Below the pieces are notes generated by a model, which worked only from the letters and a program-made list of their open reading frames with translations, had not been told where the DNA came from and searched no databases. Below are positions 40,371 to 45,110 of a stretch of 53,081 nucleotides of DNA, piece after piece; the stretch's first letter is position 1; each line of letters begins with the position of its first letter. The stretch is from Candidatus Hodarchaeota archaeon. Lineage in GTDB: Archaea; Asgardarchaeota; Heimdallarchaeia; Hodarchaeales; Hodarchaeaceae. Made by a program: the position numbers and the translations under genes. The DNA is taken from contig JAEOTM010000198.1 of NCBI GenBank assembly GCA_016839815.1, forward strand, positions 1-53,081, given 5' to 3'.

Positions 40371-40522
40371 TTTCAGAAATCTAATTATTTTTCTTTCACC
40401 TTCATCTATCTAGGTATTCTAAGTATGAATAGCTTTAAATGTCCAGTGTCCTAGAACATTGTAGAAATGGGCTTTTGTCAGGATTATTTCTCTTTTACTC
40501 ACTGTCAAGACGTGAAACTAAA

Positions 40523-41095
40523 ATGGAACCAGTAGACGATGAACCAAGATCCTATCAAGATTATTTTGAAGAAGTATTTGACTCTCTTTCATTACTTAAA
40601 TTACAAATTGATACTACGATAGAAAAACCTGATGAGTTATACAAACAGTTGGGTACTGTCGAAGATGTATTAGAAACTCTATTAAACTGGATTAAACTAC
40701 AGAAAAACGGTCTACGGAATTTTGAAACCATCGTAGATTGGGTAAAGAAATTAGCAATTGATACAACCTTAAGCAAAGATGAAATTCGGAGTCGTTTAAG
40801 AATCATAATCCTCCCCCAGGTTGAATCTTTTACCCAGAATCTCACTACTAATGAAAAAAGCGCATTAAAAGTCTTAGATGCGGTAAGTAAGAATTTAGAG
40901 GAACTACCTCAATTTTTAAAATCAGTTCAACAAAAAAATTTCAAGTTACTTTCCACAATTGGCTATGATCCCCAAACAGGAACCTCACATCTTGATTTAG
41001 CATTTTTAAATCTCTACCAAGGTCGATTTGAAGATTTTGAAAAGGAATTAGAACACTTAAAGGAGAATATGGTCCCAAAAGAGAGTTCTCCTTAG
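40523..41095 (+). CDS. Hypothetical all-alpha protein
   Basis: Amphipathic helical composition. ATG at 40523 preferred because the upstream residues look non-coding. Confidence 0.6.
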   Translation: MEPVDDEPRSYQDYFEEVFDSLSLLKLQIDTTIEKPDELYKQLGTVEDVLETLLNWIKLQKNGLRNFETIVDWVKKLAIDTTLSKDEIRSRLRIIILPQVESFTQNLTTNEKSALKVLDAVSKNLEELPQFLKSVQQKNFKLLSTIGYDPQTGTSHLDLAFLNLYQGRFEDFEKELEHLKENMVPKESSP

Positions 41096-41235
41096 TAATA
41101 TCACATCATATTCCATAAGGCATTTAACCATTATTTTATAAACTAAAACCATCTATTTAAAGATAAATTCATCTAAAATGTCAAGATAATATATTTATTT
41201 ATCGTGTTTTGTAAGATACAAGAGGGTTCAAAACT

Positions 41236-43185
41236 TTGGCCAGTAACAATCCAAAACTAGCTTTTATTAAGAGTATTGCAGCTTCTTCTCGAAAGATGGA
41301 ACAGGCTATTTCCTCAGAAATGAAAGGTAGTGTCCAAAAACTTCAATCAAGACCAAAATCGTATTATACTATCCAAGATATCGAAGAGATTATCGAATCC
41401 ATTAAAGATAAAATGATTGCGTTCAATAAGGAATCACACACAGAATTTTCTAAACGGGGTCTTAAGGATATTGATAATATCGATCTTTTACAGGAAGATT
41501 CCGATTCAACGCTCATCACAAAGAGAGAACTGAATCAACTAAGGTCAGAAGTAGAGACTTTACGTCAACAATCACCAGACACTTCATCATATGAAAAGAA
41601 GATAGAAGAACTTACTCTATTATTACAGGAAAAAGAAAATGAGATTTCAACGCTCAATTCCAAGACTGGAGCTTCCTCAGAAAAATATCAAGACCAACTA
41701 GAAGAAATAAATCGACTTCAAGAACTGTATGATGAATCACAAAGAGAAACAAAACAATCAAAATTAGAAAGAGACAAGATTGAATCAGAATACGAGGTAA
41801 TTGGTAATACTCTAATGACAACACGTCTGGAGATTGAAGAATTACAGACAGTGATAGGAAATAAGGATATTGAATTAGAGAATTTGAAGTCGGAAGTACA
41901 AGTACTAACTACCCACGCGGAAGAAAATGTAACTTTAAAAGAACAGAATACTAAATTAAATGATGAAATCGCTAATTTAAAGACTGTATTTCAGAAAGAA
42001 GTCGATAAAGTTAAGATGTCATCTTCCAAACAGGCAGATGATTTACTTGGAGAAACTAAGGGTCTGAAATTAGAAATAAACGAACTAAAAATGAAGATAT
42101 CTGACTTGGAAGAAAAAAACAAGATTTTAGAGAAAGAAAATGAAGATCTTGTTATTGATTCGGGAGAAACCAGCGAAGAAGCTCTCAATGTCCAGAAAGA
42201 ATTATCAGAGACTAAATCTCTTCTTGACCAGAAAAATATCGAAGTTAGAGATCTTAACACTCAGGTCGAGGAGCTTGAATCACAGATTACCAATCTTGAG
42301 AAAGAGAAAGTCGAATTCAAAAAACAACTGGCTTCAAGCGAATCTTCAAGAGAACGAGTTGAGGGGAACTTAACACATACACAACAAGAAATGGACGATA
42401 AAGATTCATTTATTGAGAAAATCCAATCTCGACTGAAAGAGGCAAAGAAAGCTGAAGATGAAGCACGAACAGAAAATCGAACCTTGAAAACCCAAGCTGA
42501 AGATCTACAAATCGAAGTTCAAGGTAAAAATGAAAGAATTGATGTAATTGAAAAAGCTCTGAATGAAACAAGAGAAAATCTTGCTAATCTTAAAATTGAA
42601 TATGAAAAACAGAAATCAACGATTCTCGATCATGAAACTCAGCTAAAAACTAAAAACCTTGAAGTAACCGAAACTATGAAGGAACTGAAAACTCTTAGAG
42701 AAAAACATGAAAGCATAAGAGAAGAAATTGATGGTTCCAGAACAAAAAGTGCATCCTTTGAACGGCAAAAAGAAACGTATGAAGTTGAAATTAAAAGTCT
42801 GGGATTACAACTCACAGAAGCGGATGAAGCAAATAAACGCTTAGAGAAGAAAATTAATTCATTTAAAGATGAGATAATAAAATCTAATGGGGAAAACGAA
42901 GCACTAAATCGCCAGTTAACAAGATTAAAGGAAGAATCCGAGCAATATAAACAAGCTGTGGATGTTCTAAAGATAAATTTATCCAAAAATCCAAAATATG
43001 CTATTTTATTTGTATTACAGGATATTAAACAAGCTTCAGTAGAAGAATTAGCGAAAACTGTTGCAATTCAACTCGTTTTTGCTGAACGTCTGATGAATGA
43101 ATTAGAGTCGGAAGGTTGGATTGAATACAATAAAGATCAAGCCCGTGTAACCTTAAAACGTAGTTTTTTAGATATTGAATCATAA
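41236..43185 (+). CDS. Very long coiled-coil protein with C-terminal winged helix
   Basis: Roughly 480 aa of heptad E/K/L sequence, then YAILFVLQDIKQASVEELAKTV...LESEGWIEY. No Walker motifs. Confidence 0.75.
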   Translation: MASNNPKLAFIKSIAASSRKMEQAISSEMKGSVQKLQSRPKSYYTIQDIEEIIESIKDKMIAFNKESHTEFSKRGLKDIDNIDLLQEDSDSTLITKRELNQLRSEVETLRQQSPDTSSYEKKIEELTLLLQEKENEISTLNSKTGASSEKYQDQLEEINRLQELYDESQRETKQSKLERDKIESEYEVIGNTLMTTRLEIEELQTVIGNKDIELENLKSEVQVLTTHAEENVTLKEQNTKLNDEIANLKTVFQKEVDKVKMSSSKQADDLLGETKGLKLEINELKMKISDLEEKNKILEKENEDLVIDSGETSEEALNVQKELSETKSLLDQKNIEVRDLNTQVEELESQITNLEKEKVEFKKQLASSESSRERVEGNLTHTQQEMDDKDSFIEKIQSRLKEAKKAEDEARTENRTLKTQAEDLQIEVQGKNERIDVIEKALNETRENLANLKIEYEKQKSTILDHETQLKTKNLEVTETMKELKTLREKHESIREEIDGSRTKSASFERQKETYEVEIKSLGLQLTEADEANKRLEKKINSFKDEIIKSNGENEALNRQLTRLKEESEQYKQAVDVLKINLSKNPKYAILFVLQDIKQASVEELAKTVAIQLVFAERLMNELESEGWIEYNKDQARVTLKRSFLDIES

Positions 43186-43221: not shown

Positions 43222-44079
43222 ATGCATGCTCAAAAAATCCTTAACGCTTGCAAGAAAAACTTGATTGATCTAGACGAGGAAATCATTCTAATTTTAAAAG
43301 CAATAGGTCAAAATCTCAGCATTATAATTGAAGGAGAATCGGGTACTGGAAAAACTGAATTAGCAAAGACTGTAGCAGCAGCGTTAAAAAGACCATTCTA
43401 TAGAGTTGATGGTGACGAGAATTTAACAATAACACAGCTTCGTGGTTGGTTTGATCCTGCATTAGTCATTGAATCAGGCTTTGGAGAGGATTCATTCATA
43501 CCAGGCCCTTTGACATTAGCTATGTTGAATGGAGGTCTATTTTTCTTTAATGAAGTAAATCGTGCACCCAGTGAATCGATTAATGGCGCTCTTTCCGCAA
43601 TGGATTCTAGAGAAAGATCAATTGAAATACCACAATACAAAAATATCGAGGCCGAGTATGGATTTTATACAATTTTCACCTTGAATCCCTCAGAATACAT
43701 CGGTACTAATCCATTACCAGAAGCATTCTTTGATAGATGCATTAGGATATATTTGTCACATAAAACAGGAAAAGATGCTGAAAAAATTGTCAAATTAAGG
43801 ACTAGCTGCACAGATAGTGAGTTAATCCAGAAATGTGTTCTTTTCACAGAAAAAACTCGCTTGAACAGTAATTTTGAACGAGGAGCGAGTATTCGAGCTG
43901 CGATTCAATTAACTCAATTACTAATGGATGGTGTGAGTGATGACAACCGAATATTACTTACCATAAATGCAGTGTTCTCTGGTAAGATAAAACTCCAACC
44001 TGATATTTCTCGTTCTGTAGAAGAATGCTTGGAAGAGATTGCCGAAGAAGTTTTTTTTGTAAACCGGCCAAAAAACTAG
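43222..44079 (+). CDS. MoxR-like AAA+ ATPase
   Basis: GESGTGKT, PGPL, FFNEVNRA, TLNP, LPEAFFDRC, SIRAAI. Confidence 0.9.
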   Translation: MHAQKILNACKKNLIDLDEEIILILKAIGQNLSIIIEGESGTGKTELAKTVAAALKRPFYRVDGDENLTITQLRGWFDPALVIESGFGEDSFIPGPLTLAMLNGGLFFFNEVNRAPSESINGALSAMDSRERSIEIPQYKNIEAEYGFYTIFTLNPSEYIGTNPLPEAFFDRCIRIYLSHKTGKDAEKIVKLRTSCTDSELIQKCVLFTEKTRLNSNFERGASIRAAIQLTQLLMDGVSDDNRILLTINAVFSGKIKLQPDISRSVEECLEEIAEEVFFVNRPKN

Positions 44080-45110
44080 GAAAGCGGGACTCTGTTCCCG
44101 CTGATTCAGGTCATACGCTTAAATTATCATCTGGTACTCCACAACGCAATCTTGTGGAAACTATTCTTGAATTTCGACTACAACAGAAACTAGATACTGC
44201 TAAAACCATCGAATTTACTGAAGAAGCACTTAATTCAAGAAATTTGCATGCAGTCGAAATACTCGCTGAATCTTACCCTCACGTAGTAGCAGACGTAATG
44301 CAAATGGATACATTCGATTCCAACCTTGTTTTAGAATCACCTAGCCTAATTTTCCAAATAAAAAACCATTTAGATCCTTTAATTGAAAAAAAACTTATGC
44401 GTATCTTAATTCCAAGGATGATTAAGGATACAGAATCCTTCTTTCATACTATAGATCGTTCACAATACCCGATTCGGACTTCTTACAATCCTGGGAAAAA
44501 GTGGAATACTGAAAAAACCATTGAGAGATTCTTATCTTCTGGGGATAGAACCTTTAACTATTCACATGTAGTCTGTGAAGAAAGAAAGGAGAAGAAATCT
44601 GCGGTATTTTTGTTGATTGATAAAAGCCACTCGGTTATACAATACTTGAACTTTATAATAATTGCATCAATTATCTTCTCTTTAGCGTTAGAAAAGAAAG
44701 ACATAGGAATCATCAGTTTCGATACTCAACCGACTATTATTAAGAGTATGAAGGATAGAGGAACAACAAGTACTCAAATCGTGAAAAAACTGATACACTT
44801 AAGCTCAGGAGGAAAAACCGACATTCATTCTGCTCTAGTTAAAGCTCGAAAAGAGCTATCGAATGTAATTACTAAGAAAAAAACTCTTATTTTAATCTCA
44901 GATTTACTAGCTACATCGGGTAGAGATTTTCTACCAATCTTGAGAACTTTTGATGATGTTCGAATTATCATCACACCAAGACGTCAAACACTTCAGCTTA
45001 CAAAGCCCTTACTCGGTCATTTACGTAAAATGAATAACGTGAAGCTATTTCTCCTACCTGAAAATGAGAGATTAATCCTTAACATGTTAGAAAAAGTTCT
45101 GTACAACTAG
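44025..45110 (+). CDS. VWA domain protein (CoxE-like), probably translated as a frameshift extension of the AAA+ ATPase
   Basis: MIDAS DKSHS, GGKTDI, ISD. The only early start in the track is a TTG inside the AAA gene. Confidence 0.82.
   Translation: MLGRDCRRSFFCKPAKKLGKRDSVPADSGHTLKLSSGTPQRNLVETILEFRLQQKLDTAKTIEFTEEALNSRNLHAVEILAESYPHVVADVMQMDTFDSNLVLESPSLIFQIKNHLDPLIEKKLMRILIPRMIKDTESFFHTIDRSQYPIRTSYNPGKKWNTEKTIERFLSSGDRTFNYSHVVCEERKEKKSAVFLLIDKSHSVIQYLNFIIIASIIFSLALEKKDIGIISFDTQPTIIKSMKDRGTTSTQIVKKLIHLSSGGKTDIHSALVKARKELSNVITKKKTLILISDLLATSGRDFLPILRTFDDVRIIITPRRQTLQLTKPLLGHLRKMNNVKLFLLPENERLILNMLEKVLYN
44070..44102 (+). other. Candidate -1 programmed ribosomal frameshift signal
   Basis: In-frame A_AAA_AAC (44070-76) directly before TAG, spacer TAGGAA, hairpin AGCGGGA-CTCTGT-TCCCGCT (44083-44102). 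The -1 frame is the VWA ORF. Confidence 0.75.

Follow-up and report, generated by a model that had tools for sequence, protein, structure and literature searches.

Organization of the locus

The window, i.e., the whole stretch of DNA analyzed here (53,081 nucleotides), belongs to a genome of 4.2 Mb that is 89.5% complete. As listed in Table 1, it contains the ORF of a MoxR-type AAA+ ATPase, whose product matches AAA_5 (E = 2e-18) and AAA_3 (E = 4e-12), followed by an overlapping -1 frame that is open from 44004 to 45110 and whose product matches VWA_CoxE and VWA_2. Relatives at 82% identity bear the names Hodarchaeota or Heimdallarchaeota, and one at 63% is Ca. Hodarchaeum mangrovi, which places the window in a Hodarchaeales-type Asgard archaeon. 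The 3' end of the ATPase ORF reads CCA AAA AAC TAG, and the stem that follows is present in the MFE fold and the centroid fold alike; taken alone, the fold is only modestly unusual in comparison with shuffled sequences (z = -1.8 to -2.45). The -1 frame extends for 344 codons past the slip site, and the predicted fusion is thus 629 aa (285 + 344). An earlier note on this DNA had described the heptamer in its correct phase, the 7-bp hairpin six nucleotides further on, the VWA identity of the -1 frame, and products of 285 and ~629 aa, and all of these are borne out. Its statement that the first ATG of the VWA frame lies about 220 nt downstream holds for the downstream side (ATG 44298, +221) and missed an ATG at 44025, which is located 52 nt upstream of the ATPase stop and opens a 361-aa ORF, as well as GTG 44154 and TTG 44244, which precede ATG 44298. 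Given these codons, an independent start of the VWA protein needed testing.

Table 1. Features of the locus (window coordinates) and homologous loci with other layouts
Feature	Position or locus	Strand	Remark
MoxR-type AAA+ ATPase ORF, 0-frame product	43222..44079	+	285 aa, about 32 kDa
Walker A of the ATPase	43333-43356	+	within 43222..44079
In-frame ATG of the -1 frame, 5' of the slip site	44025..44027	+	usable start not conserved
T8 run, second in-phase heptamer U_UUU_UUU	44051..44058	+	possible minor entry in the window copy; the conserved site is the A-heptamer
Slippery heptamer A_AAA_AAC, X XXY YYZ phase	44070..44076	+	immediately 5' of the stop
-1 frame portion of the 629-aa fusion	44076..45110	+	flexible linker, helical domain, finger, VWA
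Spacer, 6 nt	44077..44082	+	heptamer-to-stem gap; holds ATPase stop TAG (44077)
Hairpin, 7-bp stem, 6-nt loop, core GCGGGA/UCCCGC	44083..44102	+	predicted stimulatory element; arms 44083-44089 and 44096-44102
Conserved helical segment, -1 frame residues 22-74	44139..44297	+	upstream of first downstream ATG 44298
VWA domain, intact MIDAS	44601..45104	+	DxSxS at 44619-44633, T248, D276
+1-offset loci	L037-L039, L141, L150, L153, L160, L174, L198-L204		TTT TTT CGN
Fusions with retained shift site	L144, L147, L151, L154, L222; L048, L049, L215		short form via frameshift predicted
Short AAA gene and fused AAA-VWA gene with degraded ATPase	L033:1396-4154, L231:5152-7905

Two further elements at the junction were considered and rejected. 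The T8 run was discarded as the main shift site, because in several orthologs a -1 stop falls between its position and the A-heptamer. The hairpin loop could pair with 44106-44109 in the window, and this pseudoknot was discarded because neither the loop nor the downstream bases are conserved among orthologs. A promoter and terminator scan remained at chance level and did not call the hairpin a terminator, and a search against Rfam returned weak matches only, all under the gathering scores.

Conservation of the slip site and hairpin

In the genus to which the window belongs, the -1 offset and the in-phase A-heptamer are kept in all 20 orthologs, and the six A columns of the heptamer are invariant. 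The Lys codon in the heptamer is AAA in 20/20, despite the collapse of amino acid identity around the junction. The stem, whose 6-nt distance lies in the 5-9 nt range for a stimulatory structure, is almost invariant even at synonymous positions, which indicates selection, with the rare codons CGG for Arg in 17/17 and CCC for Pro in 18/18 (genome-wide use, 8% and 16%, respectively), and the spacer, which keeps its length, and the loop vary freely in their bases. The hairpin is intact in 17 of the 20 orthologs; the three in which it is not (L008, L013, and L019) all have A10-A11 runs, and the longer run may substitute for the stimulator or change the mechanism. With a stem that hardly varies, the genus offers little covariation, and the seeming double changes at the inner pairs trace to orthologs without the stem. 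In the genus, the alignment of orthologs that the earlier note had proposed as a check supports the offset, the heptamer, and the hairpin, with only weak covariation of the stem.

The same arrangement recurs with different signals. In family f3, the -1 offset and an in-phase A-heptamer (A_AAA_AAA) are found in 23/23 orthologs, and in the stem, which differs from that of the genus, 5 of 9 pairs have changed in a compensatory way. A paralog in the window genome (contig C153; L072:4916-6864), which adjoins mutS/mutL, has the heptamer U_UUU_UUA and a -1 VWA frame of 355 codons, and its 7-bp stem is unrelated to that of the window locus. This arrangement is kept in 21 loci; the stem is nearly invariant, and its covariation is weak.

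Start codons in the -1 frame

The ATPase and the VWA protein could be two separate, coupled genes, with VWA synthesis starting at ATG 44025, by near-cognate re-initiation at the ATPase stop, or at GTG 44154, TTG 44244, or ATG 44298. Separate genes are the usual case for MoxR/VWA partners. On contig C12 of the same genome, a CoxD/CoxE-like pair, which is useful as an internal control, has this ordinary layout, with its own ATG for the second gene. The 361-aa ORF of the window copy, the ATGA overlap of the C153 paralog in the window genome, and the ATG located 10-13 nt past the stop, which is mostly kept in family f4, also fit a second gene. Among the genus orthologs, however, an upstream start in the open -1 frame is found in only 2/20, no ATG lies within 330 nt in 8/20, and in several of them the -1 frame opens just 3-9 nt 5' of the heptamer; in the orthologs of the C153 paralog, the ATGA is replaced by ATA or no start is present. 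The protein segment encoded ahead of the first downstream ATG is as conserved as the rest of the ORF (mean identity of ~50% among orthologs) and is predicted to form helices (pLDDT = 77-93), and from residue 60 onward the -1 frame can be aligned with natural in-frame fusions. Moreover, separate genes leave the phase of the heptamer and the hairpin unexplained. A conserved independent start, which the earlier note had named as a refutation, was thus not found in the genus, and we consider two separate genes improbable. A separate free VWA protein from ATG 44025 could arise in this genome in addition to the frameshift product.

Distribution of the layout and control counts

A profile search of the phylum gave matches in 212 of 301 genomes at E = 1e-60, some of them via more distant paralogs. 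The classifiable distinct loci comprise 147 overlaps at -1, 15 at +1, 20 in-frame fusions, and one short-plus-fused pair. The -1 layout spans 18 Asgard families, together with Bathyarchaeia and a bacterium, so that the phenomenon, which the earlier note had discussed for its own lineage, is much wider, with the signal kept across Asgard archaea. A strict heptamer is located in the last nine codons of 125/147 -1 loci, compared with 96/2001 ordinary ORF ends (4.8%) of the window genome; a G_GAU_UUU-type heptamer is found in 18/147, and no heptamer was recognized in 4/147. An ATG lies within 30 nt of the stop in 14/147 (133/147 lack one), versus 141/189 ordinary overlapping pairs at -1. At 0-6 nt past the heptamer, the mean folding energy is about -9 kcal/mol, versus about -3 kcal/mol elsewhere, and the mean fold z past the heptamer is -2.0 versus -0.06. 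These counts are descriptions and not p-values, and they overstate independence because the genomes are related.

Outside the Asgard archaea, the family is present in 9 of 251 genomes of the phylum that contains Bathyarchaeia (six at -1 with a heptamer, one at -1 without, and two fused) and in 7 of 11 genomes of one bacterial class (L068 and L269-L274), where all seven are at -1 with A9-A10 runs. In a phage collection, only distant matches were obtained, none of which covers 80%.

A further rival reading is an assembly error in a homopolymer, or a pseudogene of an in-frame fused gene; in its favor, the junction contains an A6 run and a T8 run, and in-frame fusions exist in the family. However, the same offset is found in 147 distinct loci, single-contig genomes included, the stop lies just past the heptamer in nearly all loci, the catalytic and MIDAS residues are kept in both halves, and a public contig, possibly from the source sample, matches the junction gap-free. 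With the same layout in dozens of independent assemblies, the check for a homopolymer error revealed none, and error or decay has almost no chance of being the explanation.

The runs could act at the level of transcription instead, if RNA polymerase added a base in A6 or T8 and two mRNAs resulted. Poly-A slippage is used by dnaX in Thermus (PMC3711429), and runs of 9-11 are present in 12 of the 147 -1 loci, among them the genus trio without a hairpin; the bacterial group, as described above, has runs of comparable length. The run that is conserved is nevertheless only A6, which is under the cited lengths (A >7, T >8; PMC3711429), and in 36/147 loci, whose heptamers include G_GAU_UUU, A_AAU_UUU, and G_GGU_UUU, no run exceeds 4, so that slippage offers no explanation for these sites. 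The codon phase, and the placement of a stem at ribosome distance, belong to translation. Slippage is therefore given only a slim chance as the mechanism of the family, while it may act in the copies with A9-A11.

As a side observation, the control ORFs of the window genome include five further genes that have a strict in-phase heptamer at their end together with a long overlapping -1 frame, and two of the five have no ATG within 60 nt.

Other gene layouts predicted to give short and long forms

The 15 homologs at +1 offset, from four families, all have an in-frame TTT TTT CGN (UUU_UUU_CGN) near the stop, compared with 1/2039 control ORF ends. This motif resembles the +1 site of influenza PA-X, UCC_UUU_CGU (PMC5009743). 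Eleven of these loci are ambiguous, because an ATG sits 10-13 nt past the stop; in the other four, none is found within 50 nt.

Eight in-frame fusions retain a shift site with a near stop in the shifted frame. Five of them, in family f24, keep TTT TTT CGN at the end of the AAA part, with the +1 stop 2-10 codons on, and in the other three, which belong to a third genus paralog, A_AAA_AAA is kept, with the -1 stop 3 codons on, i.e., in the orientation of dnaX. A Kariarchaeaceae-type lineage has, next to a short AAA gene, an in-frame fused AAA-VWA gene in which Walker A and sensor-1 are both degraded. The -1 shift, the +1 shift, the fusion with a shift site, and the duplication would therefore be several routes to the same two products, and what seems to be conserved is that a short form and a long form are both supplied. 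This rule is not universal, because some fusions (Hecatella, Methylarchaceae) show no shift site and are not accompanied by a short gene. The natural in-frame fusions in the family are about 600-635 aa. In the tree, which is a quick IQ-TREE version with midpoint rooting, the layout states are interleaved with 19 changes; no order of events is claimed, because of the way in which the tree was made.

Structural features of the AAA+ and VWA parts

The predicted long product has an AAA-linker-VWA architecture. The Walker A/B, sensor-1, and arginine-finger columns are invariant in the ATPase alignment, and across 51 homologs the MIDAS residues D182, S184, S186, and D276 are invariant and T248 is conserved in at least 90%. 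In the model of a natural fused homolog, in which a low-confidence linker joins the AAA and VWA parts, the AAA fold is nearest to NorQ and CbbQ (Foldseek E of about 1e-16). The best Foldseek matches of the VWA part are the NorD VWA and Rea1-MIDAS. Named MoxR subfamily models missed the ATPase (GvpN, 68.6 versus a cut-off of 266.8; MadB, 31.7 versus 475), and the CobS model gave no match at E = 1e-4. A complex prediction for the short AAA and the degraded fused AAA of the L231 pair scored 0.39, versus 0.00 for the best control, with a partner pLDDT of at least 81 and with 94% of contacts agreeing between runs. This gives weak support only, since predictions that pass at 0.39 are more often wrong than right and the result may reflect solved AAA rings.

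The longest structural alignments of the VWA part are with the MIDAS domains of MDN1 and Rea1 (200 residues, Z = 16.5 and 15.5), and midasin is the top whole-protein PDB sequence match. A special kinship with midasin was considered and is not shown, because its best single domain (73 bits) scores below NorQ (85 bits).

Proposed mechanism

We consider it highly probable that the ATPase and the following VWA frame form one recoded gene with two products, made by a programmed -1 ribosomal frameshift; the proposal rests on sequence analysis, with no protein, ribosome, or reporter data. The geometry of the site, its conservation, the absence of a conserved start, the intact domains, and the natural fusions are observed directly at the sequence level, and the ribosomal nature of the slip is inferred. 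The majority of ribosomes would make the 285-aa AAA+ protein and terminate at TAG 44077, and a fraction, stalled by the hairpin 6 nt on, would slip by -1 on A_AAA_AAC with re-pairing of tRNA-Lys and tRNA-Asn, and would add 344 codons to yield a 629-aa AAA-linker-helical-VWA(MIDAS) protein. The short and long products would then assemble together into a six-membered ring, with the VWA on only a minority of its subunits, and the frameshift would set the AAA:VWA ratio from a single mRNA. By analogy with NorQ6-NorD1, the metal of the VWA MIDAS may grip a client, and the ring may pull the VWA finger, so that the client is remodelled or metalated. The ratio, the make-up of the ring, the assembly of the hexamer, and the remodelling of a client are inferences, and a mixed ring with few VWA-bearing subunits and a client held by the MIDAS is likewise inferred from that analogy. 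The junction peptide that had been proposed for detection of the fusion is poorly suited to trypsin, with which only the 4-mer NLGK results.

More broadly, we lean, with moderate assurance, toward an unnamed MoxR-VWA family that is widespread in Asgard archaea and whose recoding dates from close to the origin of the phylum. In this view, frameshifting would set the number of MIDAS-adaptor subunits per AAA+ ring, and the family would have switched repeatedly among -1 heptamers, the PA-X-like +1 UUU_CGN, gene duplication, and a dnaX-like layout of inverse orientation. To connect the family with the origin of midasin would go one step further; that step is unsupported, and we regard it as very doubtful.

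Comparison with known systems

Frameshifting of chlD gives a short AAA product and a long AAA-VWA product from one gene (PMC3711429, Antonov et al. 2013; PMC9227772, Kuznetsov et al. 2022; PMC5009743, Atkins et al. 2016). The frameshifted chlD genes share with the window family an A/U-rich slip site with a structure downstream of it, the predominance of -1 over +1, the existence of natural fusions, and the loss of the signal upon AAA duplication, and the chlI and chlD pair is paralleled by the Kariarchaeaceae-type pair with its degraded fused ATPase. On the other hand, the window ATPase differs from ChlD in being of the NorQ/CbbQ/GvpN-like MoxR type (AAA_5), and its family differs in being widespread in Asgard archaea. 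The ATPase gave no match to the ChlI/ChlD models (TIGR02442, TIGR02031, and TIGR02030) at E = 1e-4, and it is only 25% identical, over 122 aa, to the ChlI-like protein of its own genome; the C153 paralog reached 28 bits against these models, whose cut-offs are 500-780, and the ChlI-like protein reached 399. The cobN/chlH gene (PF02514) was not found in the window genome, at its 89.5% completeness, and it is absent also in some carriers of frameshifted chlD (PMC9227772). The gene in the window would operate like a frameshifted chlD, yet it is not ChlD. The ChlI-like gene (contig C100, 18055-19110) and a 986-aa ChlD-like gene (contig C127, 34865-37825) have ends without the frameshift layout.

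One NorD binds the NorQ hexamer (PMC9976466), and the finger of the NorD VWA enters the NorQ pore (PMC9976466, PMC13036017). The window system resembles NorQ/NorD, CbbQ/CbbO, CoxD/CoxE, and RavA/ViaA (PMC9976466, PMC13036017) in that its AAA part is nearest to NorQ/CbbQ and its MIDAS is intact, and the likeness of the VWA part to NorD extends to the N-terminal extension that holds the finger. The partners in those systems are encoded by separate genes, each with a start of its own and located beside the client genes, whereas the VWA of the window system would be tethered to an AAA subunit through recoding. Midasin (Mdn1/Rea1) has six AAA_5 modules and one MIDAS in a single giant chain, without recoding. 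In dnaX (tau/gamma), an A-rich heptamer and a stem-loop likewise direct a -1 shift that gives two subunits of one AAA+ ring, but the shift yields the short form there and would yield the long form in the window; some homologs have the dnaX orientation. The Saccharolobus fucA1 site (A_AAA_AAU), which was the sole tested -1 case in an archaeal cellular gene in a 2021 review (PMC8211752), also combines an A-rich heptamer with a stem-loop; its shift is restricted to strains, whereas that of the window family is conserved across the phylum. A search that left most subscription literature out of scope turned up no paper that describes frameshifting of MoxR/VWA genes or of Asgard genes, and an overlap with the gene set of Antonov 2020 (MBE) is not excluded.

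The use of the chlD device in a second AAA+/VWA family suggests that making short and long subunits from one gene is a recurring way of setting AAA:VWA stoichiometry. If the proposal is correct, no recoded cellular gene reported for archaea would be more widely conserved than this one, and virus-type -1 and +1 signals would work on the ribosomes closest to those of eukaryotes. Well over a hundred natural cassettes with varied heptamers and stems are available in the archaea nearest to eukaryotes, which makes the rules of archaeal frameshifting directly testable. Gene callers split such loci, and the VWA protein may receive a false start.

Genomic neighborhood

A comparison of neighbors found no client gene that is conserved across families. 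The synteny of the neighbors (the 218-aa protein, the 649-aa coiled-coil protein, an M48 protease, and a P-type ATPase) is limited to the genus, and therefore no client can be named. The first two lie upstream of the ATPase in the same orientation (window 40439-43185), separated from it by a 36-nt gap, and are candidate clients. The 218-aa protein belongs to no known family, and the 649-aa coiled-coil protein has a weak HTH match at its C-terminus.
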